Source: Candidatus Palauibacter poriticola (GTDB lineage Bacteria > Gemmatimonadota > Gemmatimonadetes > Palauibacterales > Palauibacteraceae). Taken from it: a stretch of 64,000 nt of DNA. Below are positions 4,235-47,359 of this stretch, piece by piece. The notes below the pieces were generated by a model, which was not told where the DNA came from, ran no database searches, and was given only the letters and a program-made list of their open reading frames with translations. The translations under genes and the position numbers were made by a program. The stretch spans positions 8,083-72,082 of the forward strand of contig JAAXHJ010000070.1 of NCBI GenBank assembly GCA_012270965.1, written 5' to 3'. Within the stretch, counting starts at the first letter, position 1, and the number at the start of each line of letters is the position of its first letter.

Positions 4235-4242
4235 GCGGAGCG

Positions 4243-12838: not shown

Positions 12839-12985
12839 CCGCCCGCCCCGACCCGCTCTCCACGGAGGCATCGAGCGTCGTGTCGCGGGATACTCCTCTC
12901 GTCACCGTGGATCTCAACCTTTACCTTGCCGCGTCTGCGGCGAGCCCGTCGTCCGCCTTCAACTACCGCCATCTTCAAGCGCGGC

Positions 12986-14563
12986 ATGCCTGATCCAACT
13001 GATTCCAACCGCGCCCCGGCCCGCTGGGCGAAAGTCATCGATCACACGCGCTGTATCGGCTGCCACGCCTGCACGACGGCGTGCAAGTCGGAGAACGAGG
13101 TTCCGCTCGGCGTCACCCGTACCTACGTGAAGTACGCCGACGTGGGAACCTTCCCGGCCGCGCGACGCGCCTTCCAGGTCACGCGTTGCAACCAGTGCGA
13201 CGACGCGCCGTGCACGACCGCGTGCCCCACGCAGGCCATGTTCCGCCGTCCCGACGGGATCGTGGACTTTGACAAATCGATCTGCATCGGCTGCAAGGCG
13301 TGCATCGCCGCCTGTCCCTACGACGCCATCTTCATCAACCCCGACGACCATTCCGCGGAGAAGTGCAACTTCTGCGCTCACCGCATCGACATGGGGCTGG
13401 AGCCGGCCTGCGTCACGGTGTGCCCGACTGAGGCGATCATCGTCGGCGACCTCGACGACCCCGAATCGAAGGTCTCGCGGTACGTTGGGCGCGACTCGGT
13501 GAGCGTGCGGCGGCCGGAGAAGGAGACCCACCCGAAGCTGTTCTATAAGGGGGCGCACCAGGCGACGCTCGATCCGCTGGCCGCCGTCCGTCCCGGAGGC
13601 GGGCTGTACATGTGGAGCGAGCAGCCCGAGGGCCCGCACGAGGTCGGCTCGGGCCAGCCGCACCCGATGGGGACGGACGGACGGCACGGCCCGAACTCCT
13701 CGGCCGCCGCGATTCTCTCCTATGACGTGTCGCACTCCGCGCCGTGGGACTGGCGCGTGAGCCTGTACACGCTCACCAAGGGAATCTCGGCCGGCGTGTA
13801 CCTCGCCGTGCTCCTCCTCTGCCTGCTGGGGGGGGTCGCGTGGCGGGACGGAACCTGGCTCACCCTCACGCCGCTCCTCGGTCTCGCCGCGCTCGCGCTC
13901 ACCGGCGGACTGCTGATCTGGGACCTCGAGCACCCGAAGCGCTTCTTCCTCATCTTCACGAGGCCCCACATGAAGAGTTGGCTCGTGCGCGGCGCCTTCG
14001 TCATTGCGGGTTACGGCCTGGCCCTGACCGCGCACCTCGCGGCGGCGCTGATCGGCGGCGCCGGCGCCGCGGAGACGACGCGCTCTCTGGCGTGGGCGGG
14101 GGCGCCACTGGCCGGCATGACCGCGGTCTACACGGCCTACCTCTTCGCGCAGGCCCGGGCGCGCGATCTGTGGCAGAATCCGCTCCTGCCGCCGCACTTT
14201 CTCGTACAGGCGGTGCTGGCCGGCGGTGCGGCGCTGATGCTCTTCCCGTCGCTCGGCGGCTCCGCCGCGCTGGGCCGGCTCGTGGGGCTCACGGCCGCCG
14301 CGCACCTCCTGCTCGTGCTCGCCGAACTCACGCTCACGCACGCGACGGCCCACGCCGCCCTCGCCGCCCGGAACATGGTGCGCGGCCGCTACGCGCCATG
14401 GTTCTGGAGCGGCATTCTGCTCGTGACGCTGGCGGGCACCCTGACGGTGAGTCCGCTCAGCGGCACCTGGGTTGCCCCGCTGATCGGCATTTCCGCCCTC
14501 GCGGGGCTCCTCGCGCACGAGCACGCGTACGTCCAAGCAGGCCAGTCCGTGCCCCTCGCATGA
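12986..14563 (+). CDS. 4Fe-4S dicluster (PsrB/NrfC-like) fused to NrfD/PsrC membrane anchor
   Basis: CIGCHACTTAC, CNQCDDAPCTTACP, CIGCKACIAACPY and KCNFC...PACVTVCP, followed by a multi-TM NrfD region (PWDWRVSLY, LIWDLEHPKRF, SWLVRG). Confidence 0.92.
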   Translation: MPDPTDSNRAPARWAKVIDHTRCIGCHACTTACKSENEVPLGVTRTYVKYADVGTFPAARRAFQVTRCNQCDDAPCTTACPTQAMFRRPDGIVDFDKSICIGCKACIAACPYDAIFINPDDHSAEKCNFCAHRIDMGLEPACVTVCPTEAIIVGDLDDPESKVSRYVGRDSVSVRRPEKETHPKLFYKGAHQATLDPLAAVRPGGGLYMWSEQPEGPHEVGSGQPHPMGTDGRHGPNSSAAAILSYDVSHSAPWDWRVSLYTLTKGISAGVYLAVLLLCLLGGVAWRDGTWLTLTPLLGLAALALTGGLLIWDLEHPKRFFLIFTRPHMKSWLVRGAFVIAGYGLALTAHLAAALIGGAGAAETTRSLAWAGAPLAGMTAVYTAYLFAQARARDLWQNPLLPPHFLVQAVLAGGAALMLFPSLGGSAALGRLVGLTAAAHLLLVLAELTLTHATAHAALAARNMVRGRYAPWFWSGILLVTLAGTLTVSPLSGTWVAPLIGISALAGLLAHEHAYVQAGQSVPLA

Positions 14564-17682: not shown

Positions 17683-17773
17683 GCCGCAACTTGACAGAAA
17701 ATAGAGGCCCCCATCTACTACATCCCGTGAAGACACACGGTGCCGCACGCGCCGCCGGCGTGGGACATTAGAC

Positions 17774-18679
17774 ATGGAGCTGTTTCGCGCCCTCGGCGCG
17801 CTTCTCGATGGCCCGTGCGGGGAGAATCGGCTCCTTGGCCACCTCCTCGAACTGGGCCCGCTGCCGGACGAGCCCACGCACAACGACCTCTTTCTCTTCC
17901 AGCTTTATCCGTACGCCTCCGCCTTCCTGGGTACGGACGGGCGCATGGGCGGGGAGGCGCGCGACCGCGTCGCCGGCTTCTGGCGCGCGCTCGGGACGAC
18001 TCCCCCGCAGGATCCGGACCACTTGCGGGCCCTGCTGGGGGGCTACGCGTGGCTGGTGGAAGCGCAGCAAAGTGGGAACGGCCGGTCCGCCCAGGCCTGT
18101 CGCGACGCGCGGCACACCTTCCTGTGGGAGCACCTGCTCTCGTGGGTCCTTCCCTTTCTCACCAAGCTGCGGCAGATCGCGCCGCCGTTCTACCGGGAGT
18201 GGGCCGACACGCTCGAGGCCCTCCTGTTCAGCGAGTCGGCTCGCCTCGGGCCGCCGACGCGACGTCCGCTCGCGCTCCGCGAGGCAGCGCCGGTGCCCGA
18301 CCCGCGCCGGGCCCAAGCGGACAGCTTCCTGAACGCCCTCCTGAGCCCGGTGCGCAGCGGGCTCGTCCTCACGCGCGCGGACCTCGCCAGAGCCGCGCGC
18401 GACCTCGACCTCGGTCTCCGCGTGGGCGAACGTGCCTACATCCTGCGGTCGATGATGTCGCAGGGGCCGCACGCGACCCTGGACTGGTTGGCGTGCGAGG
18501 CGCGGGATTGGGCGCACCTTCACGACCGCGGGGGGACCACGGCGCCGGAAGTCGCCGATTTCTGGACGCAGCGCGCGACCGCAACGGGTCGCCTCCTCAG
18601 CGACCTCGGCGCCGATCTCAACGCTGACCTCGGCACCGACATCGACTCCGGCCTCAGCGCCGACATACGCAATGGCTGA
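17774..18679 (+). CDS. TorD/DmsD family redox-enzyme maturation chaperone
   Basis: LYPYASAFL, PDHLRALL and FLWEHLLSWV...FY motifs; directly downstream of the Mo-enzyme. Confidence 0.85.
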   Translation: MELFRALGALLDGPCGENRLLGHLLELGPLPDEPTHNDLFLFQLYPYASAFLGTDGRMGGEARDRVAGFWRALGTTPPQDPDHLRALLGGYAWLVEAQQSGNGRSAQACRDARHTFLWEHLLSWVLPFLTKLRQIAPPFYREWADTLEALLFSESARLGPPTRRPLALREAAPVPDPRRAQADSFLNALLSPVRSGLVLTRADLARAARDLDLGLRVGERAYILRSMMSQGPHATLDWLACEARDWAHLHDRGGTTAPEVADFWTQRATATGRLLSDLGADLNADLGTDIDSGLSADIRNG

Positions 18680-19883
18680 CACCGGCGGGAACCCGCCCCT
18701 GCATCCGGGGCGTTTCCGCGCCATCTTCCTTCTCCTTCTCGTCGCCGGGATCAGCCTCCTCTTCCTCGAGATGATCCGGACGTTCCTCACGGCGCTCTTC
18801 CTGGGGGCGATCCTCAGCGGCCTCATGTACCCGGCCTACCGGGCCCTCCGCCGCTGGTTCGGGGGAAGGGAGGGGCTGGCCTCCTTCGCCGCGGTCGGCC
18901 TGTTCGTGATCCTTCTCATCGTGCCGGTGACGGCGTTCCTGGGCATCGTCGCGAACCAGGCCGTGCACGTCACGCAAACGGCGGGCCCCTGGATCGAAGA
19001 CATGCAGGCTCAACTGGGGCGGCCGGGAGGGATCGACGAACTGCTCGACCGGATTCCCTGGCTGGATTCGCTGCGGCCGTATCAGGGGCAGCTCCTCCAG
19101 AAGCTGGGTGAGGTTGCGGGGTCCGTCGGCGGTTTCGCGGTCGACTGGCTCACCGGCGTCACGACGGCCACCGTGCGGGTCGTCTTCCTCCTGTTGCTGA
19201 TGTTGTACGCCATGTTCTTCTTCCTGAAGGACGGGCGCGGCGTGTTGCGCAAGGTCCTCTACTACCTCCCGCTCTCCGACGAGGACGAACGCCGCATGCT
19301 CGACCGCTTCGTCTCCGTGACGCGGGCGATGGTGAAGGGAACGTTCCTCATCGGCATCGTGCAGGGCGCGCTGGCCGGACTCGCCTTCTGGGCGGTGGGG
19401 ATTCCGTCCGCCGCCTTCTGGGGCACGGTCATGGCGGTACTTTCGATCGTCCCGGGGATCGGATCCGCGCTCGTGTGGCTGCCCGCCGCGATCTACCTCC
19501 TCGCAGCCGGCCAGATCGCCGCCGGCATCGGGCTGATCCTGTGGTGCGGCCTCGCGGTGGGGACGCTGGACAACCTCATGCGCCCCTGGCTCGTCGGGCG
19601 CGACACCCGGATGCCGGATCTGATGATCCTGCTCGGCACCCTCGGCGGGCTCCTCGCCTTCGGCATGGCCGGCGTGCTCATCGGCCCGATCGTCGCGGCG
19701 CTCTTCATCACCGTGTGGGAACTCTACGGCGAGTCCTTCCGCGACATCCTGCCCGCCACCGCGTTCGGGACTCGGGCGGCGGCCGAACCCGACGCAGCGA
19801 GTCCGCCGACCGCCCCGCCGCCGCCGGCCGCCCGGAATCGCGTTGAGGGCGAGGCTGGTATCGAAGGGAACCCGCAGGACTGA
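18672..19883 (+). CDS. AI-2E family transporter
   Basis: FFFLKDG, LSIVPGIGSALVWLP, DNLMRP, LGGLLAFGMAGVLIGP; multi-TM. Confidence 0.92.
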   Translation: MADTGGNPPLHPGRFRAIFLLLLVAGISLLFLEMIRTFLTALFLGAILSGLMYPAYRALRRWFGGREGLASFAAVGLFVILLIVPVTAFLGIVANQAVHVTQTAGPWIEDMQAQLGRPGGIDELLDRIPWLDSLRPYQGQLLQKLGEVAGSVGGFAVDWLTGVTTATVRVVFLLLLMLYAMFFFLKDGRGVLRKVLYYLPLSDEDERRMLDRFVSVTRAMVKGTFLIGIVQGALAGLAFWAVGIPSAAFWGTVMAVLSIVPGIGSALVWLPAAIYLLAAGQIAAGIGLILWCGLAVGTLDNLMRPWLVGRDTRMPDLMILLGTLGGLLAFGMAGVLIGPIVAALFITVWELYGESFRDILPATAFGTRAAAEPDAASPPTAPPPPAARNRVEGEAGIEGNPQD

Positions 19884-21490
19884 TGGGCTTCGCGACGGAA
19901 CCGGCCTTCGTCTGGTTTTATTCCTTCGCCATCGTCCTGTTCGCGGGCTACTGGGCGTTCAGGCTGCTCCGCAGAGTTCTCCACCTAGATCGTACGCTGA
20001 CGGACCTCACGGACGCTATCGAGGATTATGCTGACGAGGAGGCGTTCGCGGGGGGGTTTTCGGACTACGACAAGCGCGTGCGGGATCTCCTTCTCGACAA
20101 GGTGCCTTGGACGGAATTCGTCGAGTCGCTGATTGGGCCCGGTTCCGGTGAGTCAAGCGTCATCCGCAATACACGAGACGTATCAGAGTTTCTCAACGAT
20201 GCGACGATCATCTTCCCCCGCCTCTCGAGGGATTTCTACCGGGCCTTGCCCAACCTGCTGACGGGCCTCGGGATTCTGGGGACTTTCCTCGGTCTGGCGG
20301 GAGGTGTCGGCGAAGCCAGCAGCGGCCTCGGATCAAGCCAGCTGGACGAGGTGACGGGGTCGATAAGCAGCCTTCTGGACGGAGCCTCCCTCGCTTTCTG
20401 GACGTCGATCGTGGGCATCTCGTGCTCGATCGCGTTCGTCTTGCTTGATCGCTGGTGCACCCGCCGCGTGCGAGACACGCTGCGCCGCTGGGTTGACGGA
20501 ATCGAGGAGCGGCTTGAACGCCTGACCACGTCGCGGATCGCGCTGGACCAACTGAAGCAGGCTAGGCGGACGACAAGAGAGCTTGAGACGTTCAACACCG
20601 AACTCGTCTTCAGCATCCAAGCTGCGCTCGATGAGAAGATCGTAGGCGGACTGTCGCCGCTCTTGAAGGACATCCACAAGGCGGTGGACGATCTCCGCCG
20701 CGACCGTGCCACCGACAGCGCGACGGTGGTCGAAGATGCCGTGAAGAGCTTGGCGAGCCTTCTGGAACGTCAGACGGGCGAGCAGTTCGAGGAGATGAAA
20801 GAGACGATCGCCGAGCTGAATAGATCGTTGGCCGGCGGAATCGAATCGCTGCGTGACGGCGCGCAGGAACTCGCTCGGCAACTGGAGGACTCTGGAGATC
20901 GAGCCGCCAAGAGGTTGGACGGGTCCACATCTGGACTGGCTGCGGGAGCGCAGAACCTGTCGGGCCTGATCACACAAGGCGAGCGGCTCGTCGAGAAGAC
21001 AGCCACCATGATCCAAGGCTTCAGCAGCGTGCGGGAAGAGATCATCACGGCCGAGAACAGATTCAGGGAGGCGCAAGCTGCCCTTGTGGCTGCGGCCGAA
21101 CCGCTTGCGGCGACGGGCAGGAATCTGGGGAAGACCGGAGACCGGGTCGTCGAAGCAACGGAGCAGGTCGGAGTCGCGGCGAAGCTGATTGCCGAGACGG
21201 TGACAGATTTGGAGCGCACTCAGCGGGAAACGTCCCGCGCATGGGCAGAGTATCGGGAACGCTTCGCGGGCTTGGACGTGACGTTGGAAGGTGTGTTCGC
21301 CCGGCTGAAGGAGGGTCTGGAGGCGTACTCGAAGCAGGTCGGGGAGTTCATGCTAGGACTCGATGGCTCGGCCAGCCGCGTCACTGACTTGCTGGCAGGC
21401 GCGACGCAGGAATTGTCGGAAGCGGTCGAGGATCTTGACGGGACGCTGGACAAATACCTGAGACCTTTGCGGCTGAGATCACAGCCGTGA
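19883..21490 (+). CDS. zorA: Zorya anti-phage protein ZorA (MotA-like with long helical tail)
   Basis: N-terminal TM; LPNLLTGLGILGTFLGL and AFWTSIVG MotA/ZorA TM motifs; about 330-aa coiled-coil-like tail; first gene of a zorABCD-ordered operon. Confidence 0.88.
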   Translation: MGFATEPAFVWFYSFAIVLFAGYWAFRLLRRVLHLDRTLTDLTDAIEDYADEEAFAGGFSDYDKRVRDLLLDKVPWTEFVESLIGPGSGESSVIRNTRDVSEFLNDATIIFPRLSRDFYRALPNLLTGLGILGTFLGLAGGVGEASSGLGSSQLDEVTGSISSLLDGASLAFWTSIVGISCSIAFVLLDRWCTRRVRDTLRRWVDGIEERLERLTTSRIALDQLKQARRTTRELETFNTELVFSIQAALDEKIVGGLSPLLKDIHKAVDDLRRDRATDSATVVEDAVKSLASLLERQTGEQFEEMKETIAELNRSLAGGIESLRDGAQELARQLEDSGDRAAKRLDGSTSGLAAGAQNLSGLITQGERLVEKTATMIQGFSSVREEIITAENRFREAQAALVAAAEPLAATGRNLGKTGDRVVEATEQVGVAAKLIAETVTDLERTQRETSRAWAEYRERFAGLDVTLEGVFARLKEGLEAYSKQVGEFMLGLDGSASRVTDLLAGATQELSEAVEDLDGTLDKYLRPLRLRSQP

Positions 21491-22302
21491 GACGGGAACG
21501 GGCGCGCCAAGCTACGCCGCAGGCCGAGGGTGGAGACTATCTGTCGACGGTCAGCGATCTCGTGTCTGCCCTGATTTTCATATTTGTGATCCTGCTCGCC
21601 GTGTTTGCGTATCAGCTGGCCGGGTGGGGCGTGGCGGGGGAGGACACCGCGCTCGCGGAAGTGCTCCAGGAGATTGAGCGGCGGCTGGACAGCGCGGGTG
21701 TCGCGGTGATTATCGTCCCGGAACAGGGAGTGCTCCGCTTCTCGAATAACTCGATCAACTTCGATTTCGGTAGCGAGCAACCAGCAAGCATACATGATCG
21801 CAACATCGGGCGCTTGGCTTGGGCGCTTGCCCAAGTGCTGCCCGGCCGGGTTAATGGGCACGTGGAGCCAACGGGTTCGGCTTCGGTGGCACGACCCGGC
21901 TATTGTGAGCCGCCGGTGGATGCGATCCATTATTCGTCGAGAGATTCAGTACGCTGGCACGTCGAGACGTTGTTGATCGAGGGGCATACCGACAGTATTC
22001 CCGTGTCGGAAACGGGCAGCCAACGCTACCGTGACAACCTCGAACTCTCGTCCATGCGCGCCGCCTGGGTGCATCGCATGATCAGCGATTGCGAGTCGCG
22101 GTTGAACGGACTGCGCAACTCCGATGGCTATCCGATCCTGAGTACCAGCGGTTACGGAGAGGCGCGACCCACCGGTTTTGGCGCGGCCGCCGACCGGCGG
22201 ATCGACCTTCGCTTTCTGTTGGAGCCGTCCACCCGGCTCGGTGACGCGGATCCCGTCACGGAGGAGGTCGGGAGGCAGTACGACCGGAGAGGGGAGCGCT
22301 GA
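21487..22302 (+). CDS. zorB: Zorya protein ZorB (MotB/OmpA-like)
   Basis: SDLVSALIFIFVILLAVF (conserved TM Asp); OmpA-like IEGHTD, NLELSSMRA, SGYGEARP and DRRIDLRF. Confidence 0.9.
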   Translation: MRRERARQATPQAEGGDYLSTVSDLVSALIFIFVILLAVFAYQLAGWGVAGEDTALAEVLQEIERRLDSAGVAVIIVPEQGVLRFSNNSINFDFGSEQPASIHDRNIGRLAWALAQVLPGRVNGHVEPTGSASVARPGYCEPPVDAIHYSSRDSVRWHVETLLIEGHTDSIPVSETGSQRYRDNLELSSMRAAWVHRMISDCESRLNGLRNSDGYPILSTSGYGEARPTGFGAAADRRIDLRFLLEPSTRLGDADPVTEEVGRQYDRRGER

Positions 22303-23711
22303 TGGAGAGAGCGGGGAACCTGCGAGGAATCTTGGATTCTTGGCCTCCTATCATGCGACCCCCGTCCGGCTTCAGGCCCCGACGGATCGCGATCGTGGAG
22401 CGCACGGTCTCCAAGGAACTTGGTCGGATCGAGGCTAGGCCCCCCACTTCGGTCGACTTGGACGCGCTGCGGCGGCGAACGCTGGCCGCATGGCGCCAGC
22501 ATCCGCCTGCCCGGTTCATGCGCGAACTCTCGCCGCGGGATCGGAAGCGGCTCCCGTGGGTCCTGTTTGGAGATCGTGATCCCCTGAGAGTCTATTTTGA
22601 CCTCGTGTGCGCCTACCGCGACTGGCTCGCGGAAGCGCCGCCCTCCGCCCTCCGGACGCTGCTACATGTGCTGTTGCTGAAATACCCGATGGAAGAGCCG
22701 GCCGGCGACGTGCTGCGGGCGGAGCTGGCGAGAGTTTTGGCGCGAGCGGAAGGTCGGTCTCTCCAACGCTGGACGAAGCGGTGCAAGGAGTACGGCTTGC
22801 TCAGGGCCGATGGCCTTGGTCGGTTCGGGAAGTTGCTGCTCCAGGCGGCCGATCCGCACGAAGTACTTCAGGCGGCTGGCTTCGACGGGGGACTGTTGCG
22901 GTGCGAATTCCTGCGGCATGTGGCCCATAGGGTTCTGGATGAAGCGGGCGTTCGACTGCGTGGCGAGGAGGTCGGGGCACTGCAAGAGCGGCTGTTCCGC
23001 TTCCTCGAACTTGATGGGCAGCTCCGCTTCAATGACCCCGAGACCCGGAGCCGGCTCGCGAAGGGACTGCTCGATCCCTACACGGCCCGCCCGCCGGAGG
23101 CGCCCGTCAGAAACGTCTTGTTTCCGTTCTTTCGCCGACACTTCGGGCATCCGCACCTCAATGCCGGCCGGTGGCACGGAATAGAGGATGACCTCAGAAA
23201 GGTTGCCCTCCGGTGGTGGATCGAAGAAACGCTGGAACTCTTCGTACAGGTGGTCAAGGAGTTCGCCCTCGACCGACATTGGAGGTATCGGGAGAGATTT
23301 TGGCGAGCGTTCCACGACGCAGGGTTCATCGATGACGCTTGGTTCGTCTTCGGTCCGCGGGCGACGGGCATGATTCGATCGATCCCGGGGCACTCGGGCG
23401 AGGACGTCGGTGCGGTTCATGCGCGGCTGACGGGCGCGGACAACAGCCAATCGGTACTACTGCTTCGCATGCCGGGCCTAACGATAGCCGAGTGGAGCCA
23501 CAACGGGTCGTGCCGCATCTGGCTCGACGGGCATGAAAACCAGCCACCACTACACAAACGGTCCTATGACGCGTCGATGCTCCGGGCCTCGGCCGACTTC
23601 ACGCAACCGCATTTCTTGAGCGAGATGGGAAGGTGGCAGCGGCGCGTCGCATCGTACATCGAAGCGAACACGGGGGCGGCGGTGTCCCGCCGCAAGTACG
23701 CTTTCCTGTAA
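22302..23711 (+). CDS. zorC: Zorya protein ZorC (EH-signature domain)
   Basis: C-terminal RHWRYRERFW...DDAWFVFG...IAEWSHNGSCRIW...QPH...GRWQ EH-signature pattern; lies between zorB and the helicase. Confidence 0.85.
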   Translation: MERAGNLRGILDSWPPIMRPPSGFRPRRIAIVERTVSKELGRIEARPPTSVDLDALRRRTLAAWRQHPPARFMRELSPRDRKRLPWVLFGDRDPLRVYFDLVCAYRDWLAEAPPSALRTLLHVLLLKYPMEEPAGDVLRAELARVLARAEGRSLQRWTKRCKEYGLLRADGLGRFGKLLLQAADPHEVLQAAGFDGGLLRCEFLRHVAHRVLDEAGVRLRGEEVGALQERLFRFLELDGQLRFNDPETRSRLAKGLLDPYTARPPEAPVRNVLFPFFRRHFGHPHLNAGRWHGIEDDLRKVALRWWIEETLELFVQVVKEFALDRHWRYRERFWRAFHDAGFIDDAWFVFGPRATGMIRSIPGHSGEDVGAVHARLTGADNSQSVLLLRMPGLTIAEWSHNGSCRIWLDGHENQPPLHKRSYDASMLRASADFTQPHFLSEMGRWQRRVASYIEANTGAAVSRRKYAFL

Positions 23712-26700
23712 TGGACGCGCTTCAGTTCGAACCGCGATCCGAGCACCTTCTCGTTCGGCTAGCCGGCGCTGAGCCCGTCCCGGTGGCCGACTGGACCGCT
23801 CGGGAGGCAGCCCCCCCGGGAATCGAAGTGTTTCTTCGATTATGGTCCGACGGGGAGGCGGAGTACGCCGAGGATGGCTACGCCCTGAGTGTGCGCTGGC
23901 CCCGCCTAGCCGGCCTCGCCCCAAGGGAGCTGTCCTACGCCGGCCTACCTAACGCGGCACCATTCACGGTAGAAGTACGGGCGAACGGCGCAATCCATCA
24001 TTCCGACTTTCAGATCAGCTATCGCTTTATTCGTCGTGGTCGACATGTGTGGGGTGTGCGTAGATTGGGGGCGTGGCTGAGTCACGGAGACGACGCGGAG
24101 TTCATCCTGCTGGAGCCGCTCTACTCCATCCTTGACGAGATCGACGCGTTCACAAACGCCGGGGAGTCGGACATCGAAGCGCGGATGCTTCATTGGGGAC
24201 GGATAAGACTCCGGCTGCCCGTAGAATCCGTCGTCGACGACCATCTGCAATCGCTGCATATTTCCGTGGCGTCTAGTTTCCGCTTGCATCCGTTCATAAA
24301 CCAGAACGGCGAGACCGACTTCCATCCGATCCTCGGCCGCCGGGTCACGGAGGAGAGGGAAGACGACGAGACGCACGAGGTGTTTCGGGAAGTGCTACCC
24401 TCAGCCCGGCAAGACGAGTTCGCGCGACGCTTCAGAGGGCTGCCGGCAGTCCAGCCGCGATATGCTGTTGGCGGCGGCGCCTTCGTCATGCTTGCGAAGG
24501 GGATGAAGCGCTGCCTCGACGTTGTGCACCGGGCTCAGCGAGGCACGGTCGAGGAGCGCCGCGACCTCCTCAAGAACGTGCATGGGTATCTCCAGGCGGC
24601 CCTCGCCTCGGACCCAGCGGTCGACGCTCCGTCCGTCACCGAGACCGAGTCCGGTCCGCCGGATGTAGTTCCCGAGATCGAATCCCAAGACCTCGACGCG
24701 ATCTTCAGCGACGAGGGGCTCAGTGACCGAGTACGCGGGATCGGCTGCTGGTCCATTAGGGATCTTCCTTGGATTAAGATGCCGGGAATACCGTGGCTGC
24801 CCCCGGAAGAACTCGGCGTCGAGATAGGCGGTCAAGTTGTCTGGGTGCCGACGGAGGACCTTCCGTGCGTCATCGAGCAGGTCAAGGAGGCGCAGGCGGA
24901 GGGTGTCGAGTCCGTCGAAGTCAACGGTGCCCACCTACCGGTGACGCCCGAGGTTATTTCCACGCTCGAGGAATATGATCGGCGTGCGCGCCCCGCCCGG
25001 CCCGATACCAGTAAGACGGGCCCGCAAGGGTCTCGGCAGCGGGAACGGCGCGCCGATCAGGTCTTGGATGTCATCGATAATCTGACGGAGACTGCCTACC
25101 GGCAGCGCCGGAAACCGCGGGGGGTAGATCTCTCGGCAACGGGTCCGGCCCTCCGGTCAACGCTCATGCCCCACCAGCAGGAGGCGCTGCGCTGGCTGCG
25201 GGATCATTGGAGCGGCGGTAGCGCGGGCGTTCTGCTCGCCGACGACATGGGGCTGGGAAAGACCATCGAGGCGCTGGCGTTCATGTCATGTCTTGGGCAG
25301 ATCATGGGAGAGGACCGGGTGCTGCCTCACAAACCCATGCTCATCGTGGCTCCGACCGGTCTGCTGAAGAACTGGCTGGACGAGCAAGAAAAGCACTTGT
25401 CGCGGCCGGGACTCGGAAAGATCGTCGAGGCCCACGGCCGGGAGCTGTCCAAGCTGCGGCGGAGGGCGGCCCCGATGGACAAGATCCGGGGCGAGTTGTC
25501 GGACGCCCTGCCGCAGCTTGACTTAGGAGAGCTCGGGCGGGCGGACTGCGTGCTCACGACCTATGAAACGCTACGCAACTACCAACACTCGTTCGGGCGG
25601 ATTGAGTGGCGCGTGGCCGTGTTCGACGAAGCCCAGAAAATCAAGAATCCCGCTGCCCGTATCACGGACGCGGCACTCGCCATGAACATTGATTTCTGTC
25701 TGCTCATGACCGGGACGCCGGTCGAGAACCGGGTGGCGGACATTTGGACGTTGCTCGACCGGGCCGAGCCGGGGTTATTTGGCCCGCTGAAGGAGTTCAG
25801 CCGCCGCTACGAGTCCGACGAGGGGAGCGGCCAAGCGCTGGAGGGACTCCACAGCAGATTGGTTGAGCCAAAGTCGAACGTCCCCGCGCTCATGCTACGG
25901 CGCCTGAAGGAAGACCACATCGATAATCTTCCACGCAAAGTGCTACACGTGGAGCACGTCACCATGCCCGCTCGGCAAGCCGAGGTCTATACCCGTGTCG
26001 TAAGCAACAGAGACGGGGGAAAGAGGATTCTTCAGACGCTGCACCGGCTGCGCAGCGTCTCGCTGCATCCGACATCGCCCGGCGATGCGAAGAGCTGGGA
26101 GGAGTACCGGGACGGATCAGCCCGGCTTTCCGAGACGTTTCGGATACTGAGGAGGATCCAGGCGGCTGGTGAGAAGGCGCTGCTCTTCGTCGAGCCGCGC
26201 GATATGCAGGCGTTCCTCATCCGTGTGCTGCGGAGGGAGTTCGGGCTCTCGCAGGACCCACTGGTCATCAACGGTGCCGTATCCGGGGTGAAGCGCAAGC
26301 AACGCGTGGACGAGTTCCAGGAGCGGCAGGGGTTCGACGTTATGATCCTGTCGCCGCGTGCGGGCGGAGTGGGGCTCACGCTCACCGCCGCGAACCACGT
26401 CATCCACCTCACGCGGTGGTGGAACCCCGCCGTCGAGGATCAATGCACGGATCGCGCGTACCGAATCGGCCAGCGTCGGACGGTGCACGTGTACGTACCC
26501 ATCGCGGTTCATCCCCTGTTCCGCGACGCCAGTTTCGACGTGAACCTCCATAACCTGATCATGAGGAAGCGCGATCTGAACCGTCAGGTATTGGCCCCGA
26601 CCTCGGCCACCGGAGACGACTTCAAGGAACTGTATCGCAACTCTATCGAGATTGGGGACAACGGAGGGAGGCGTGCGGATGCCGGCGGGAGCGAAGCCGC

Positions 26701-27088
26701 GAGGGACATCGACATCATGGAGCCGGAGGCGTTTGAGGACTGGGTGCTCCATCAGCTGGCCCGCGCTGGATACAAGACGCACCGCACGCCGCCGACGCGT
26801 GATGCGGGAATAGACGGCCTCGCAGTGTCGCCCGAGAAGGATCACACGCTCGTGATCCAGTGCAAGCACACGCAACGCACGGGCTCCAATCGTGGGCCCG
26901 ACGCGGTCGAGGAGGTGATACGCGGCTCGGACGCCTACCGGCACTTAATCAAGGGACGAACCGTGCTGATGGTGGTGACCAACGCGATGGGCTTCTCGAA
27001 ACCCTCGCGCCGAATGGCCAAGGCACACGACGTCGTCCTCATTGATCGAGCGGGGTTACGCGGTTTGTCCTCGTACCGGACGTCGTGA
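23711..27088 (+). CDS. zorD: Zorya protein ZorD (SNF2 helicase plus C-terminal Mrr-like nuclease)
   Basis: ATG overlaps the zorC TAA; LLADDMGLGKT, DEAQKIKN, TGTPVEN, GGVGLTLTAANHVIH, WWNPAVEDQCTDRAYRIGQ; C-terminal FEDWV...DAGIDGLA...IQCK Mrr-type motif. Confidence 0.9.
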   Translation: MDALQFEPRSEHLLVRLAGAEPVPVADWTAREAAPPGIEVFLRLWSDGEAEYAEDGYALSVRWPRLAGLAPRELSYAGLPNAAPFTVEVRANGAIHHSDFQISYRFIRRGRHVWGVRRLGAWLSHGDDAEFILLEPLYSILDEIDAFTNAGESDIEARMLHWGRIRLRLPVESVVDDHLQSLHISVASSFRLHPFINQNGETDFHPILGRRVTEEREDDETHEVFREVLPSARQDEFARRFRGLPAVQPRYAVGGGAFVMLAKGMKRCLDVVHRAQRGTVEERRDLLKNVHGYLQAALASDPAVDAPSVTETESGPPDVVPEIESQDLDAIFSDEGLSDRVRGIGCWSIRDLPWIKMPGIPWLPPEELGVEIGGQVVWVPTEDLPCVIEQVKEAQAEGVESVEVNGAHLPVTPEVISTLEEYDRRARPARPDTSKTGPQGSRQRERRADQVLDVIDNLTETAYRQRRKPRGVDLSATGPALRSTLMPHQQEALRWLRDHWSGGSAGVLLADDMGLGKTIEALAFMSCLGQIMGEDRVLPHKPMLIVAPTGLLKNWLDEQEKHLSRPGLGKIVEAHGRELSKLRRRAAPMDKIRGELSDALPQLDLGELGRADCVLTTYETLRNYQHSFGRIEWRVAVFDEAQKIKNPAARITDAALAMNIDFCLLMTGTPVENRVADIWTLLDRAEPGLFGPLKEFSRRYESDEGSGQALEGLHSRLVEPKSNVPALMLRRLKEDHIDNLPRKVLHVEHVTMPARQAEVYTRVVSNRDGGKRILQTLHRLRSVSLHPTSPGDAKSWEEYRDGSARLSETFRILRRIQAAGEKALLFVEPRDMQAFLIRVLRREFGLSQDPLVINGAVSGVKRKQRVDEFQERQGFDVMILSPRAGGVGLTLTAANHVIHLTRWWNPAVEDQCTDRAYRIGQRRTVHVYVPIAVHPLFRDASFDVNLHNLIMRKRDLNRQVLAPTSATGDDFKELYRNSIEIGDNGGRRADAGGSEAARDIDIMEPEAFEDWVLHQLARAGYKTHRTPPTRDAGIDGLAVSPEKDHTLVIQCKHTQRTGSNRGPDAVEEVIRGSDAYRHLIKGRTVLMVVTNAMGFSKPSRRMAKAHDVVLIDRAGLRGLSSYRTS

Positions 27089-28486
27089 AGGGGTCAGCCC
27101 TCCTAATGCTCGACCGGCTACGCGAGGGTGGCGCGGCGCTGTCCCGCGTCACGGAACGCTGGGTGCCCGACGCGTGGGTGATCCTCATGTCGCTCACCGT
27201 GGTCGCGCTCCTCCTCGCGGTCACGGGCGGCGGCGCTTCGATGCCGGAGGCGGGGCTGGCGTGGGGCGCGGGCGTGTGGACGCTGCTCGAACTCGCGATG
27301 CAGTTCTCCATCGCCATGGTCGCCGCCCACGCTTGCGCCTCGTCGCCTCCGGTCTACCGGCTGCTCGATCGCCTCGCGCGCTGCCCGAACCCGGAGCGCC
27401 CGGTCCAGGCGGTCGCCTTGGCCGCCGGGTTCTCCATGGCCGTCGGCTACCTCAACTGGGCGTTCGGGCTCGTCGGGTCCGCGCTCTTCGTCCCGTTCAT
27501 CCTCAAGCGCAACCCGCGCGCCGACGTGCGCCTCGTCGTCGCCGCGGCCTACATGGGCATCGGGACCGTGTGGCAGTCCGGCCTCTCCAGCTCCGCTCCG
27601 CTCATCATGGCCACCCCCGGCAACCCCCTGCTCGAACCGGGGACCGGCGCGCCCGTCGTGGACCGTCTCTATCCGGTTACCGAGACACTGTTTCATCCGT
27701 TCAACCTCGGGTATGCCGCCGCCATGCTGCTCGTCGGTCTCGTCGCCGCCATGGCGCTCCACCCGCACCGCGGCGCCGTCACCCTCACCGAGGCGGAGGT
27801 CGACGAGATCCTCCCCGCGCCCCCGCCGCGCGCCGAGACCGCGACGACGCCCGCCGAGCGGCTCGACCGCTTCCGAGGCTGGTCGCTCCTCGCCGCCCTC
27901 CTGTTCGCGTACCCGCTCGCGCACTCGATCGTCACGCGGGGATTCGGGGCGAGCTGGACGATCAACGCCTACAACACCGTGTTTCTCGTCCTCGCCATCG
28001 TCCTGCACGGCCGCCCGACCTCGTTCCTGCGCGCCTGCCGCGACGGCGTGGGCGCCGCGTGGGGGATCATCCTCCAGTTCCCCTTCTACGCGGGCATCTT
28101 CGGCCTCATCCAGAATACGAATCTCGGCGGCTGGCTCGGCGAGCAGTTCGCCGCGGTCGCCACGACGCGGCTCTACCCGCTCGTGGTCTACGTCTATTCG
28201 GGGATCATGAGCATGTTCATTCCCTCGGCGGGCTCCAAGTGGATGATCGAGGCTCCGTACGTGATCCCCGCCGGAGAGGTCCTCGACGTGTCCGTCATGA
28301 CCGTGCTCCTCGCCTACGCGTACGGGGACTCCGCCTTCAACCTCATCCCACCCGTTCTGGGCGCTCCCCATCCTTGCCGTGACGCGGCGCCGCTTCGGGG
28401 AGATCTTTGGGTACGCCTTCCTCCTCTGGCTGGCGACGATCCTCCTCGGAGTCGCGACCATGCTCGTGATCCCGATTCGTTGGTGA
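27085..28486 (+). pseudogene. atoE: Short-chain fatty acid transporter (AtoE-like), +1 frameshift near 28348 (pseudogene or sequencing error)
   Basis: ERWVPDAWV, GLSSSAPL, ILQFPFYAGIFG, FIPSAGSKW, AYAYGD. Removing one C from atccca (28345-28350) restores NLIHPFWALPILAVT...FGYAF...IRW* ending at 28486. Start could be ATG 27106. Confidence 0.8.
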
Positions 28487-28574
28487 CACTCGTGAAGACC
28501 GTGACACTCGTGAAGACCGTGACGCTCATGAATGAAGACTGTGACGCCATGAAGCCGGTGACGCCATGAAGACG
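28483..28574 (+). repeat. Five 17-22 bp tandem units at the atoE-stop/sixA-start junction
   Basis: gtgacactcgtgaagacc x2 (exact), gtgacgctcatgaatgaagact, gtgacgccatgaagccg, gtgacgccatgaagacg. Confidence 0.85.
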
Positions 28575-29057
28575 CTGCTCATCCTCCGGCACGCGAAGTC
28601 CTCCTGGGACCATCCCGGGCTCCGCGACCACGACCGCCCCCTCAATCCCCGCGGCCGCCGCGACGCCCCCCGAATGGGACGGTTCCTCGTGGAACGGGAT
28701 CTCGTGCCCGGCCGCATCGTGAGTTCGACCGCCGTCCGCGCGCGCACCACGGCGGAACTCGCGTCGGCGGAGTTCGACCGGGAGGTGGAGATCGAGACGA
28801 CGAGCGACCTCTATCACGCGTCCCCGGACGGCTACATCGAAGTCGCGGAGGCGATGGGGGGAGGAGCGGAGCGCCTCATGGTCGTGGGGCACAACCCGGG
28901 CGTCACCTCCCTCGTCCGGCAGTTGACGGGCGCGGGCGAGTACATGCCGACCGCCGCCCTCGCCGCCGTGGAACTGGATATCGACGACTGGTGGGACCTG
29001 GGTTCGGCCCCCCGCGGCCGCCTGATCGGCCTCTGGCGCCCCAAGGCGCTTGCTTAG
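28566..29057 (+). CDS. sixA: SixA-like histidine phosphatase
   Basis: LLILRHAKSSW, DHDRPLNPRG, SSTAVRARTT, VVGHNP, MPTAA. Confidence 0.9.
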   Translation: MKTLLILRHAKSSWDHPGLRDHDRPLNPRGRRDAPRMGRFLVERDLVPGRIVSSTAVRARTTAELASAEFDREVEIETTSDLYHASPDGYIEVAEAMGGGAERLMVVGHNPGVTSLVRQLTGAGEYMPTAALAAVELDIDDWWDLGSAPRGRLIGLWRPKALA

Positions 29058-29151
29058 CCATAGCTCTTCGCGTGCGCCGCGTGCTGGCCCGCCTGAGAGC
29101 TGCTCCTAATCTACAGAATGTCCTTCAGGTGCAGTTGTCCCGTATCTCGAA

Positions 29152-29256
29152 TCAGCCGGAGTTTCGACGAGCCAAACCACCTCGTCCATTGAAGAGTAGT
29201 GAAACGACACTTGTGTCAACAACGACCGCAACGTGGCTGTCTTCGACGACGGTCAT
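29152..29256 (-). pseudogene. Truncated PIN-domain (VapC-like) toxin N-terminus
   Basis: ATG overlaps the upstream stop (ATGA); MTVVEDSHVAVVVDTSVVSLLF is a typical PIN N-terminal motif; stops after 34 residues. Confidence 0.55.
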
Positions 29257-30090
29257 GCGTCGCGGGCCCGGTGGATGGTCTGGATGAAACTCTCGACGTC
29301 GAACGTATCGCCGGCGATGACGATCTCGTCACCCACGAAAGGCTTCGGGTCCGACTGGTGTCGGATATCATCCAAGTTATCCGGCCGCCGCCAAGACCGG
29401 GTGCTGCTGATGGTCTGCACGGTAAGGGATCGCCAAGTGCCGTCGGCGTCAAATCTGCCTTCGCCTTCCACGCGGACGTATTGCGTGGCGAACTCACGCA
29501 TGACGTCTGCGTGACGGGCATCGAAGAGAAGGTGGATATGCCGATTACCGTACCGATGCAGCTGTGCCGTTCCCTGATCCCAATTTATCTCTAGAAGCCG
29601 TCCCTCGGCGATGGCCGTCTCGGGATGTGCTGGGGGGGCATGTGAGATGGGGCGGGGGACGGGTATCGCAACGACGCGTGTGCGAGTAGAATCGTGCAGT
29701 TGAATGGAGCTGCTCTCGGCTGAAACGTCAGAAGCGATCGCCGACAGCTCGGCGGTGACATCGGTGGGCAATGACGTCTCGTCATCGGGGTGCCAGCCGA
29801 GCAGCGCGTCGCGGGCCGCACGACCATGGTCTTGAAGGTCGAGTTGTTCGTCCGCCCCGGCGGAGCAGGCGAGTTCAAGGACCATGGATCCAGGGGATGT
29901 TCGGATCAGGCGCAACGCGCTCGCGCGACGGAGCCAATCGGTAGGACGCCCGGTGCTGGACGGAACTCCGGCGATGTGCCGCACCATGAGTCGCAGGGCC
30001 CTTTGCAGGTGCCGCAGGATCTTATCCAATCATCAAGGGACACGCCCTTATCGGGTGTGATCCCCCCGAAGCGAACATGTAGCCGAGAGC
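29253..30090 (-). CDS. Hypothetical protein, probably frameshifted near its 5' end
   Basis: 258-aa ORF 29253-30029 (LRLIRTSPGSMVLEL...EGRLLEINW...). An upstream frame reading RLHVRFGGITPDKGVSLDD joins it if one T is added near 30030; GGAGG at ~30094-30098. Confidence 0.6.
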
Positions 30091-30151
30091 CAGTCGGGCA
30101 ACACCTCCGCTGTAATGGGGGCCAGTCTGGAGCTTCTCGAGAACGTCGCTG

Positions 30152-30172
30152 AAACCACCGAAGGGTCGGTGG
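30152..30172 (-). terminator. Possible intrinsic terminator
   Basis: Hairpin CCACCGA-aggg-TCGGTGG followed on the minus strand by only TTT, about 40 bp past the stop at 30214. Confidence 0.3.
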
Positions 30173-30213
30173 CCGACCGGTGCCGCGCAAGCGGAGGTCC
30201 CGGGCCCGTGATC

Positions 30214-36399: not shown

Positions 36400-36469
36400 T
36401 CGAGGGGCGGACCCGGCAGCCGGGGACCGGTCCCGGGTCGGAGCCGCCCTCGAAGCCAACCACTTCACC

Positions 36470-36766
36470 ATGTCACGAGCTTTCGTCAACGAGGACGCGA
36501 CCCACGAACCCGAGCCGCGCTACATCCTTCCCCCGCGCGAGTCGCCGCGCTTCGAGGCGGCCGCGGCGCGAGTCCTGCTCGAAGGCGCCCACATCGGCAA
36601 CACGAGGAGCGCCGAGACCGCGACCGGCCACGCTTGGGGCGACCTCGCACTCGTCCCGCACATCGAGGATCTGATCCGCGAAGCGGAGGGACTCGGCGAC
36701 GAACGCATGGCCCGCCTCGGCCGCCGCTACCTCCAGACTGCGGCCCGCAACGAGCAAAGCCGCTGA
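36470..36766 (+). CDS. Small hypothetical protein
   Basis: 98-aa ORF with host-like codon usage; N-terminus MSRAFVNED resembles that of short GreA/GreB-like proteins, but no Gre C-terminal domain is evident. Confidence 0.6.
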   Translation: MSRAFVNEDATHEPEPRYILPPRESPRFEAAAARVLLEGAHIGNTRSAETATGHAWGDLALVPHIEDLIREAEGLGDERMARLGRRYLQTAARNEQSR

Positions 36767-37173
36767 GAACGCCGGTAGATGATCGTACGCTGTGGGATCG
36801 ACCCCCTGAACCGGTGGATCTCATGGCCTCCAAGCCTCACGCACCGTACTCCGTACTCCCTCCTCCTCGAAGTCGAGGCGATTCAGGGGAGACCGAGAAA
36901 GCGTACCCGAGTCGGCGACCACAGCCCATCGCGGCTCAGTCCCTGTCCCTCGAGATGCTTCGGATGGTCTGAAAGGCCCGTATCCAATGAGCGTCGCGGA
37001 GTCTTGATGCGGGGTGTGGGGATGCGCCTGCACGTCCGCCCGTACTCGGCGTATGTTGTCCGGTGATCGCCCACTGCGATGTGGATGTGGTAGCGTGTCC
37101 TCTCGACGGTCTCCGGATGTCGCCGCGTGCACGGAACGTAGAAAGACACGACGAACGGGGGGAAGGGAACACC

Positions 37174-37807
37174 GTGACAGCCAGCAGCAAAGAAAACGCC
37201 ACGCAGTCCATTCCGGCCGGTGCCGTCTTCCACCGGTGCGCGCTCCAGGTGAACCCGGTTGCGTACGCGAAGAAGTTTCGCGGCAAGAAGGCCGGTGGGG
37301 ACGGGCGCGCTCACGCCGACGCCATCGTGTCGAAGGCGGTCGAACTTGGCGTGTCCGTTCTGGCCATCACGAATCACAACGAGGTAAGTGGGCTCTCGGA
37401 TTTTCGGGCTGCGGTCGCGGGACGAGGAATCACCGTGTTCCCCGGCTTTGAACTCACGTCGTCCGAAGGAATCCACGTGTTATGCATGTACGAATCTAAC
37501 ACGGACAAGAGCCGGTTGGAGCGTTTCCTCGGCGAGTTCGGAATTCACGAGCCCGGATCTTCGTCGAGCCTGTCCAACCAATCCTTCCAGGAGATCCTGG
37601 CGACGGTCCGGCGGCAGGATGGAATCACGATCGCCGCGCATGTAACCAGCGATAACGGCTTGTTGAAAGTGTTACAAGGGCAGTCAAGGATCACCCGTGG
37701 TGAGAACGGTGGATGGCGAGGTCTCGAACTTGTCGCCAGAAGACATCCTTCCCCGGGTCGAGGTATACGGTCAGCACGAGATTGCCGAACTCACGCGGAG
37801 CCGTACT
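37174..37807 (+). pseudogene. PHP-domain plus AAA-ATPase (TrlF/Ppl-like) defence gene remnant
   Basis: GAVFHRCALQVN, LAITNHN, FPGFELTSSEGIHVLC, IAAHV (PHP domain). At ~37692 it jumps to another frame, PVVRTVDGEVSNLSPEDILPRVEVYGQHEIAELT, which resembles the post-Walker-A part of this family, and then stops at the IS end. Confidence 0.7.
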
Positions 37808-38740: not shown

Positions 38741-38748
38741 GCCGAAGG

Positions 38749-39135: not shown

Positions 39136-39139
39136 ATCG

Positions 39140-39679: not shown

Positions 39680-39783
39680 GCGGGAAGGCTCCCACTCCGA
39701 CTATGGCGGCGCACCCGGAGGCCGGGGCGGAGCCGCGGCCCGCCACCGGTCCGGGCCCGGCCCCCGCGTGCGAAGGCCGGCAC

Positions 39784-44541: not shown

Positions 44542-44545
44542 GCCA

Positions 44546-45586: not shown

Positions 45587-45619
45587 TGCGCCACTCGATC
45601 TCTCCTCCACCGCCCCATC

Positions 45620-47347: not shown

Positions 47348-47359
47348 AGGGGACACTCG

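Follow-up and report, generated by a model that had tools for sequence, protein, structure and literature searches.

In Escherichia coli, the account given in PMC11946911 describes type I Zorya as a membrane system in which ZorA5B2 forms a proton-driven motor that ZorB anchors to peptidoglycan, and its operon carries its own promoter. Artificial truncations of the ZorA tail abolish defence there (same source), and an Mrr-like domain in ZorD is mentioned in PMC11890865. Other defence genes are described in islands and core-flanked hotspots, where accessory defence loci sit between conserved core genes and vary among close relatives (PMC10121019 and PMC10250203). The block of about 7.2 kb described here likewise lies between conserved genes and varies among close relatives, the nearest named ones being Candidatus Palauibacter, marine Gemmatimonadota, but in contrast to those sites it is accompanied by neither mobile-element genes nor neighbouring defence systems. 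With a probability of roughly 0.8, it is an intact zorABCD locus, predicted to act as a type I Zorya anti-phage system, that was gained horizontally on its own branch. Type I Zorya is already well described and the system itself contributes little new. The locus is a very clean, otherwise ordinary instance of horizontally gained immunity, and its scarless embedding in an operon is the sole unusual feature of this Zorya.

Within the window (the whole 64,000-nt stretch of DNA analysed), four open frames on the same strand fill positions 19883-27088 without stops or frameshifts in the ORF listing. All are adjacent, in the order zorA-B-C-D that constitutes the type I arrangement. The initial annotation had called this a complete type I system and had staked that reading on profile models recognizing the Zor families. 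PADLOC assigns all four type I families (5e-43 to 2e-288), the models for ZorB, ZorC, and ZorD being matched over almost their whole length, and together with Pfam it places every frame in type I Zorya. The genes overlap by 1-4 bp, as had been noticed: by 4 nt between zorA and zorB (GTGA), and by 1 nt both between zorB and zorC (TGATG) and between zorC and zorD (TAATG).

The order and families are those of E. coli Zorya I, and the core of ZorA, the Asp of ZorB, and the GKT and DEAQ motifs of ZorD align, although sequence similarity is low. The zorA gene (19883-21490, plus strand as for all genes below; 535 aa) encodes a MotA/ExbB-like membrane core followed by a long, putatively helical C-terminal tail. 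It matches 21 PADLOC ZorA models (ZorA1, 5.2e-43) and the ZorA chains 8vvn_C (3.2e-18) and 8qyd_A (3.4e-11), with the match to E. coli ZorA restricted to residues 13-204; about 320 residues lie C-terminal of the aligned core. The N-terminus aligns with those of the closest relatives and is complete by that comparison; the tail is some 60-70 aa shorter than theirs (535 versus 575-619 aa overall) and much shorter than in E. coli, whose ZorA has 729 aa. Considering this shortness beside the E. coli truncations reported in PMC11946911, function cannot be assumed. PADLOC ZorA1 models span 487-727 positions, a range that includes the 535-aa protein.

The product of zorB (21487-22302; 271 aa) is MotB-like, with Asp24 preceding a membrane helix and an OmpA-like peptidoglycan-binding part. 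It matches PADLOC ZorB1 (3.7e-46; model positions 4-241 of 254) and chain 8vvn_B (3.5e-8), in which an Asp aligns with Asp24 and the alignment of the OmpA-like part covers residues 146-246. The zorC gene (22302-23711; 469 aa) encodes an EH-signature protein that matches PADLOC ZorC1 (2.4e-93; positions 14-459 of 462) and Pfam PF15611 (EH_Signature, 1.1e-35, exceeding the 27.5-bit cut-off), and no sequence match to it was found among solved structures.

The zorD gene (23711-27088; 1125 aa; stop at 27086-27088) encodes an N-terminal region, an SNF2 ATPase (~25172-26014; Pfam SNF2-rel_dom, 1.1e-49), a Helicase_C domain (~26144-26470; Pfam, 2.6e-12), and a C-terminal Mrr-type nuclease domain (~26711-27061; Pfam Mrr_cat, 1.4e-16). 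Its PADLOC ZorD1 match reaches 1.9e-288. E. coli ZorD (8qy7) aligns with residues 322-966 (4.9e-89), including the GKT and DEAQ motifs; that chain ends where residue 966 aligns and has no Mrr_cat, so that the Mrr domain here is an extra C-terminal element. The start codon is most likely ATG 23711 rather than the upstream GTG 23633 of the mechanically called frame, because alignments to relatives begin at residues 2-13 of the 1125-aa protein.

The closest loci for all four proteins occur in metagenome-assembled genomes labelled Bryobacterales (L042), Longimicrobiales (L044), Rhodothermales (L041), and Polyangiaceae (L043). Identities to them are 47-52% for ZorD, 42-50% for ZorB, 34-39% for ZorC, and 32-36% for ZorA, and in the ZorD tree the window groups with L042, L044, and L041 in one clade (support 97). 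Internal 4-nt overlaps are common in these loci, as here. The Mrr end of ZorD, with its D...QxK core, is shared by L041 and L044, whereas the other two have ZorD proteins of 954-979 aa without it; the ZorA proteins of these loci have 575-619 aa, and L041 differs further in carrying zorD on the opposite strand. These loci are far too distant to be donors, and metagenome contigs contained no ZorD closer than the 47-52% relatives. With the nearest ZorD relatives only about 50% identical and spread across four phyla, no donor was found. Palauibacter-like Gemmatimonadota join the lineages that have type I Zorya, here with a short ZorA tail and a ZorD fused to an Mrr domain.

By analogy with E. coli as described in PMC11946911, a ZorA5B2 motor anchored to peptidoglycan by ZorB would be activated when a phage perturbs the envelope. 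The ZorA tail would then relay the signal and recruit DNA-binding ZorC and the SNF2-type ZorD, and phage DNA would be degraded locally, the Mrr-type domain of ZorD probably doing or assisting the cutting.

The surrounding host run includes an Fe-S/NrfD gene (12926-14563), a molybdopterin oxidoreductase gene ending at 17682, and a TorD/nitrate-reductase-delta-like chaperone gene (17774-18679; Pfam PF02613, 1.7e-8). The chaperone gene, which also precedes the AI-2E gene in relatives, is the last one before it and overlaps its start by 8 nt. The AI-2E family transporter gene (18672-19883; 403 aa; PF01594, 1.3e-46) encodes a protein 88-92% identical in amino acids to those of 12 same-genus genomes. 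Beyond the block lie a short-chain fatty acid transporter (atoE-like) gene, altered at its N-terminus (27106-28569; PF02667, 1.7e-82; 89-96% identity within the genus) and a histidine phosphatase gene (28566-29057; PF00300, 2.8e-11), which overlaps the atoE-like stop, ends the same-strand run, and follows atoE in relatives too.

Evidence for gain comes from the same site in related genomes. The AI-2E and atoE-like genes are directly adjacent in 18 same-genus genomes (16 of the 29 relatives' loci examined, plus two further genomes of the genus), and 13 of these 18 empty sites share an 18-nt spacer and the atoE N-terminus MSGSP. Across the 24 same-genus genomes in which the site was examined, the remaining six comprise five with a sortilin-like gene, joined in four of them by a beta-lactamase-family gene and in two by polyamine-pathway genes as well, and one without the atoE and phosphatase genes. 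Judged by Pfam annotation, none of the 24 carries defence cargo at the site, which is empty or occupied by housekeeping-type genes. No full-length ZorD was found in 40 relatives; the best match, in G019, has 43-57% identity and is encoded some 2 Mb away from that genome's own AI-2E gene. A tree of the flanks nests the window in a clade of 14 rows (SH-aLRT 99) whose other members, like the outgroups, all have the empty site.

Composition agrees with this distribution. The block had been described as visibly richer in A/T-ending codons than its flanks, and GC3 is indeed 0.76, 0.74, 0.75, and 0.77 for zorA through zorD, whereas the two nearest genes on either side have 0.87-0.90; the corresponding values for total GC are 0.62-0.64 and 0.69-0.72. 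Among 1949 coding-like open frames of at least 250 codons, a roughly filtered set, the genome-wide median GC3 is 0.848, with 5.5% of frames below 0.74 and 12.4% below 0.77. The zor genes are therefore atypical rather than extreme, their GC3 being among the lowest 6-12% for long open frames of this genome and inside the range. Taken together, the 18 empty sites, the lack of full-length ZorD in 40 relatives, the flank tree, and the composition bear out the proposal that the block was acquired horizontally and entered a run of host genes. Synteny of the block across the lineage, which had been named as an outcome that would speak against this, is not observed. With an exact empty site in 18 same-genus genomes, bounded junctions, no mobile-element marks, and host genes that would depend on transcription through the cassette, the locus offers an unusually clean natural experiment on the movement of defence systems.

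The splice into the operon had been called seamless. In spacing this holds: the zorA ATG at 19883 shares its A with the AI-2E stop TGA (19881-19883, forming TGATG), and zorD abuts the atoE-like gene whether that gene starts at GTG 27085 (a GTGA overlap) or at ATG 27106, 17 nt on. It does not hold for the host genes, both of whose ends are remodelled. The conserved end and stop of AI-2E were lost at the insertion, its last ~16-37 codons resembling those of no relative in the tail alignment, and the atoE-like N-terminus now reads M-LDRLRE, or a GTG-started variant, where relatives have MSGSP-LDRLRE.

On the left, comparison of tails places the junction in 19765-19883, clear homology to relatives stopping at ~19765 after ...ATAFG and 19835-19882 being unlike their AI-2E tails. 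Positions 19802-19857 show a weak, collinear alignment to the end of the relatives' AI-2E tail, its stop, the spacer, and the five initial codons of atoE, with a score reached by 42/3000 and 20/2000 shuffles for the L003/G016 segment and by 84/2000 to 355/2000 for other relatives; if this alignment holds, an insertion point near 19858 is suggested, though only suggested. On the right the interval is 27076-27108, with unbroken homology restarting at 27109 (CTCGACCGG). Here 27075-27100 is weakly similar to the relatives' spacer end and atoE start, with 16/3000 shuffles reaching the score against L010 and a nonsignificant 314-1179/3000 against three others. The two models of weak residual homology are mutually exclusive, and the alignments bound the junctions to a few tens of bases rather than to an exact base.

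The usual marks of mobility are missing, as had been remarked at the outset. Pfam found no integrase or transposase among 45 window ORFs, the window contains no tRNA or tmRNA genes and no Rfam matches, and no convincing direct or inverted terminal repeat occurs in 19000-28000. No Pfam family matches the six antisense ORFs that lie within the block or next to it, and contig C41, to which the window belongs, carries no tyrosine recombinase, while the rest of the genome has 11 Phage_integrase matches. The route that we tentatively favour, with confidence a little short of even, is that a bare four-gene fragment integrated by illegitimate recombination, independently of site-specific recombination. 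Such a fragment would have brought a leader of ~25 nt and a trailer of ~20 nt, and its insertion would have left no repeats while replacing or scrambling the tail end of AI-2E and the first atoE codons.

Arrival within a larger mobile element, such as an integrase-bearing island, a transposon, or a prophage remnant that was later trimmed to the gene boundaries, is less likely than this and on the whole unlikely. It would suit the report that defence systems of E. coli lie in overwhelming majority on mobile elements (PMC10121019), the 11 integrase-family matches elsewhere in the genome, and the earlier rearrangement of this junction within the genus, where deeper genomes carry the sortilin-like and beta-lactamase-family genes between AI-2E and atoE. 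Yet it would take at least two extra deletions, whose end points on either side fell no more than a few nucleotides from the gene ends, and relic repeats, pseudogene fragments, and spare DNA are all absent from the block. An integron gene cassette was considered and rejected, as at most 17-20 nt follow zorD, no inverted repeat stands at its end, and C41 has no tyrosine recombinase. A defence hotspot or island was also rejected, varied defence cargo or mobile elements not having been found by Pfam annotation at the site in the 24 genomes of the genus.

A more specific version of bare-fragment entry is one-step capture without a recombinase, which we regard as doubtful. The fragment would have entered after atoE-like codon 5, its last three bases supplying the new start codon, and the AI-2E frame would now extend across its former stop, the former spacer, and what is left of the atoE start before entering the leader of the insert. 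Host and immune genes would then form one translationally coupled transcription unit. Were this so, the locus would give a base-level example of defence spreading without mobile elements in host-associated bacteria, under the control of a host operon.

No intergenic DNA precedes the cassette and at most 17 nt follow it, an anatomy that fits the suggestion of a cassette lacking its own promoter and makes read-through transcription probable. The cassette would be transcribed from the host run, through the chaperone and AI-2E genes, and the downstream atoE-like and phosphatase genes would now depend on transcription across it. A scan for sigma-70-type promoters gave one site against 1.2 expected by chance, using an E. 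coli-type consensus that does not cover the promoter consensus of this phylum, and five terminator-like sites were found against 6.8 expected. If read-through is correct, immune expression is tied to a host operon containing a molybdoenzyme and transporters, which would amount to domestication of a defence cassette.

It is possible, if rather unlikely, that the cassette instead has its own promoter, within the last 50-120 nt of the AI-2E frame (as DNA of the insert) or inside zorA, which would make the operon context incidental. Positions 19835-19882 could be donor DNA, being unlike the tails of relatives, and native promoters operate in the E. coli systems described in PMC11946911. Moreover, in 9 of 11 related Zorya I loci no long same-strand frame terminates in the 400 nt that precede zorA; by this rough survey, which depends on uncertain start assignments, most such relatives probably use their own upstream region. 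Against such a promoter, 19000-19900 contains no sigma-70-like site of the E. coli type, and only ~25-118 nt at most could hold one.

It is considerably less probable that the cassette, intact in sequence, is silent or non-protective cargo heading toward decay. The shortened ZorA tail would be compatible with this, as would one study in which Zorya I under its native promoter did not protect against the phages that were tried, a result indicating that expression level matters (PMC11890865). On the other side, four frames remain open across 7.2 kb with catalytic motifs retained, the sequence is identical in contigs of two studies, and downstream host genes would need transcription through the block.

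Two further readings are very improbable. Ancestral presence followed by loss in relatives, which has in its favour only that deletions are common, would require several independent losses, all precise enough to recreate one and the same 18-nt spacer and atoE N-terminus, and is further opposed by the deeper genomes of the genus, in which the site holds unrelated genes, and by the foreign composition of the block. A chimera of assembly or binning, conceivable in a 99-contig draft, is opposed by flanks that both derive from one conserved neighbourhood and by independent contigs that cross both junctions. In run X1, which may be the window's own assembly sample, one contig covers 19728-20717 and another 20890-27972, and in a second study (X5) a contig crossing the right junction covers 26925-27701, all with 0 differences; neither study yielded contigs omitting the block.

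The initial annotation had also taken this Zorya for the only intact multi-gene defence system among many decayed ones in the window. A light check of other PADLOC matches returned short pieces resembling Ppl and Aga/pAgo, an HNH protein, and a near-full-length candidate for the single-gene system PDC-S01, at 37-47 kb.

The block at 19883-27088, located between an AI-2E-family transporter gene and an atoE-like gene, is fully occupied by four same-strand open frames, and no stops or frameshifts interrupt zorA through zorD over this span. The initial annotation described these genes as a complete type I Zorya system, and this description holds because PADLOC assigns all four Zor families and the Pfam domains agree. 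All on the plus strand, zorA (19883-21490) matches ZorA1 (5.2e-43), zorB (21487-22302) matches ZorB1 (3.7e-46), zorC (22302-23711) matches ZorC1 (2.4e-93) as well as Pfam EH_Signature, and zorD, whose frame ends at 27088, matches ZorD1 (1.9e-288) together with Pfam SNF2-rel_dom, Helicase_C, and Mrr_cat. The gene overlaps that had been claimed can be read directly as TGATG, GTGA, TGATG, and TAATG, and internal 4-nt overlaps are also common in the closest Zorya relatives. The true start of zorD is most likely ATG 23711, because alignments with relatives begin at residues 2-13 of the protein that starts there. Its stop occupies 27086-27088, and the possible starts of the atoE-like gene that follows are GTG 27085 and ATG 27106. 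Six antisense ORFs matched no Pfam family, and an Rfam search of the window matched no family.

The encoded proteins retain features expected from characterized systems. The N-terminus of ZorA shows residue-by-residue alignment with the N-termini of its closest relatives. At 535 aa, the protein is shorter than these relatives (575-619 aa), with ~60-70 fewer residues in its tail, and shorter still than the E. coli protein (729 aa), whose tail is reported to measure ~70 nm. Asp24 of ZorB precedes a membrane helix and aligns with the Asp of a solved ZorB structure, the GKT and DEAQ motifs of ZorD align with solved E. coli ZorD, and ZorC has no sequence match to solved structures. At the sequence level, the cassette conforms in full to a type I Zorya system.

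In E. coli, ZorA5B2 is described as a peptidoglycan-anchored, proton-driven motor (PMC11946911). Its long ZorA tail relays the signal that a phage is entering and brings in ZorC, which binds DNA, and ZorD, an autoinhibited nuclease (PMC11946911). The outcome is local degradation of phage DNA without killing of the cell, and defense requires all four zor genes and an intact tail (PMC11946911). By homology, the cassette would act in the same manner, with a ZorA5B2 motor, a signal passed through the tail, and degradation of phage DNA through ZorC and ZorD. Unlike the E. coli protein, ZorD here has an Mrr domain, and its Mrr-type D...QxK core is common to two relatives. An Mrr end is present in two of the five closest relatives and absent from the other three. 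A second source notes an Mrr-like domain of ZorD and reports that protection hinges on expression level (PMC11890865). The Mrr domain of the ZorD described here probably contributes to the cutting.

That the block might be an assembly artefact can be dismissed. The stretch is present in eight DNA sequencing runs from two studies. In one run (X1), a contig spanning 19728-20717 bridges the left junction and another spanning 20890-27972 bridges the right, and in a run from the second study (X5), a contig spanning 26925-27701 crosses the right junction. These contigs show 0 differences from the window, and no contigs were found that skip the block. X1 is possibly the window's own source sample, and it is the run that bridges the left junction among the matches listed.

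It had been suggested that related genomes might reveal an empty site, in which the AI-2E and atoE-like genes stand side by side without Zorya. The AI-2E protein was used as query against 40 relatives, and 29 loci from these were inspected. Such a site is indeed present, with the atoE-like gene directly after AI-2E in 16 loci (G015 and 15 from the nearer genomes of the genus) and again in two further genomes of the same genus (G042 and G044). Thirteen of the 16 loci have an 18-nt spacer between the AI-2E stop and an atoE gene whose product begins MSGSP-LDRLRE. None of the 40 relatives yielded a full-length ZorD. Their best match, from G019, is 43-57% identical, adjoins its own zorC, and lies ~2 Mb from the AI-2E gene of that genome. 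In a tree built only from flanking DNA, with the Zorya block excluded, the window is nested in a 14-row clade (SH-aLRT 99) whose other members all have the empty site; the site is empty in the outgroups G013, G010, and G015 as well. As judged from these sequence comparisons, the cassette is an insertion on this lineage.

Base composition agrees with insertion. The block had been described as richer in A/T-ending codons than its flanks, and this is borne out by a GC3 of 0.74-0.77 for the four zor genes versus 0.87-0.90 for the two genes on either side. The draft genome (3.56 Mb in 99 contigs, 94% complete, GC 0.69) yields 1949 coding-like long open frames with a median GC3 of 0.848, and the zor values fall in the lowest 6-12% of these. 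The composition of the cassette is atypical yet not extreme.

More distant members of the genus carry other arrangements at this site. In five genomes (G005, G001, G018, G004, and G019), a sortilin/BNR-like gene of ~1100 aa follows AI-2E. It is followed in four of these by a beta-lactamase-family gene of ~510-650 aa, and in two of the four by polyamine-pathway genes further on. G021 lacks both the atoE-like gene and the phosphatase gene. The junction has therefore undergone repeated rearrangement within the genus. The AI-2E/atoE junction is not a collector of defense genes. In deeper genomes of the genus, the sortilin/BNR-like (~1100 aa) and beta-lactamase-family genes thus lie exactly between AI-2E and atoE (loci L279-L284), and the window has its own sortilin/BNR-like gene of 1294 aa (39784-43668, minus strand) ~12 kb downstream from the Zorya block.

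Homology to relatives is unbroken until ~19765 (after ...ATAFG) and resumes from 27109 (CTCGACCGG). The C-terminal tail of AI-2E is hypervariable and Ala/Glu/Pro-rich in all relatives. In the window, ~22 residues of this type are kept and are then followed by NRVEGEAGIEGNPQD, unlike all relatives. None of the conserved tail end, stop, spacer, and opening atoE codons can be recognized in normal form in the window. As an observation on the tail itself (19765-19883; loci L003-L017), this cytoplasmic, low-complexity segment comprises 35-60 residues, and each genome of the genus has its own version, different in both length and sequence.

Two weak, mutually exclusive models of residual homology bear on the exact junction; each attains nominal significance against one relative only, before correction for ~10-18 tests. 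In the first, 19802-19857 is collinear with G016 from the end of the AI-2E tail through the stop and spacer to atoE codon 5, with a score that 42 of 3000 shuffles and, in a second comparison, 20 of 2000 reached (84 of 2000 to 355 of 2000 for other relatives). Under this model, the event would simply have placed an insert of 19858-27108 behind codon 5 of atoE, with the new ATG supplied by the final three bases of the insert. In the second, 27075-27100 resembles the spacer end and atoE start of G006 (nominally, 16 of 3000 shuffles), and the similarity to the other three relatives is not significant. This hints instead that atoE may have kept its own start as GTG 27085. Once multiple testing is taken into account, neither of the two models is established, and the junction is placed only to intervals. 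The left and right junction segments are dissimilar (the score was reached by 2462 of 3000 shuffles), and therefore no target duplication is indicated.

Marks of mobility, whose absence had been reported, were likewise not encountered in searches of the window. There are no tRNA genes, no terminal direct or inverted repeats were found around the block, and a Pfam scan of 45 window ORFs detected no integrase or transposase. None of the genome's 11 Phage_integrase matches is on the window's contig.

The cassette is embedded in a same-stranded host gene run consisting of an Fe-S/NrfD gene, a molybdopterin oxidoreductase gene, a TorD-like chaperone gene, the AI-2E gene (18672-19883, plus strand, Pfam), the cassette, the atoE-like short-chain fatty acid transporter gene (ending at 28569, plus strand, Pfam), and a histidine phosphatase gene. 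The chaperone gene overlaps the AI-2E start by 8 nt, and the closest intergenic DNA upstream of zorA is 17683-17773. A consensus scan found one promoter-like site, inside zorB, versus 1.2 expected, and five terminator-like sites versus 6.8 expected. Gene anatomy favors co-transcription of the cassette with the host genes, which would imply that transcription now has to pass 7.2 kb of Zorya to reach the atoE and phosphatase genes. In nine of 11 related loci, surveyed roughly and with uncertain starts, no long frame on the same strand terminates in the 400 nt before zorA, and therefore embedding in a host run is not the usual state. Elsewhere in the neighborhood, a TetR regulator gene and an RND efflux set (outer-membrane factor, HlyD-type adaptor, and AcrB-type pump) at 2288-8813 provide a housekeeping context. 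Local GC dips to 0.62 at 29000-30200, just after the histidine phosphatase gene, and a 258-aa ORF at 29253-30029 (minus strand, GC3 0.70) has no Pfam or PADLOC family.

Among one-genome-per-species collections, the nearest ZorD proteins (47-52% identity) come from MAGs labelled Bryobacterales, Longimicrobiales, Rhodothermales, and Polyangiaceae, all of which carry zorABCD. Searches of genome and metagenome contigs returned nothing above ~52% identity. A 2.4-kb metagenome contig (L157) considered as a donor encodes an 81-residue piece that is 74% identical and is only a patchy relative. A FastTree of 39 ZorD proteins groups the window with Bryobacterales, Longimicrobiales, and Rhodothermales (support 97), and G019, of the window's own genus, forms the next branch (support 100). 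The spread of these relatives means that the subfamily crosses at least four phyla and that no donor can be named.

Most defense systems of E. coli are carried by mobile elements at hotspots (PMC10121019), and hotspots flanked by core genes are described in Pseudomonas (PMC10250203). The setting here is a bare operon, and the site is not a defense hotspot. The locus is an ordinary system in a slightly unusual setting. Its value lies in a clean empty-site comparison and in a hypothesis open to testing, namely that expression of the acquired immune cassette is driven by a host operon.

No second Zorya or paralogues were found in the genome by tblastn (E 1e-4). Three or four consecutive low-GC3 genes (471, 275, 427, and 420 aa) on contig C50 (29091-32618; L297) include a trio with Zorya-like gene sizes, which was rejected as a second Zorya when no PADLOC match was obtained. 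A neighboring 411-aa ORF (minus strand) has weak LmuA/PDC-M48B-type matches (best 4.4e-12). Within the window, a lower-GC stretch at 36400-48400 holds scattered defense-type genes. A 350-aa PHP-domain ORF (37063-38115) has a match confined to positions 70-173 of the Ppl model, which has 894 positions, and a 286-aa HATPase_c_4 ORF (37880-38740) matches internal parts of Aga/pAgo-associated models. These are joined by genes for a DUF433 protein (43900-44541), an HNH protein (44839-45348, minus strand), a near-full-length PDC-S01 candidate with AAA_14 and DUF4143 (46138-47286), and a PIN protein (47847-48395, minus strand). The stretch looks like a small, partly decayed defense/toxin-antitoxin patch.
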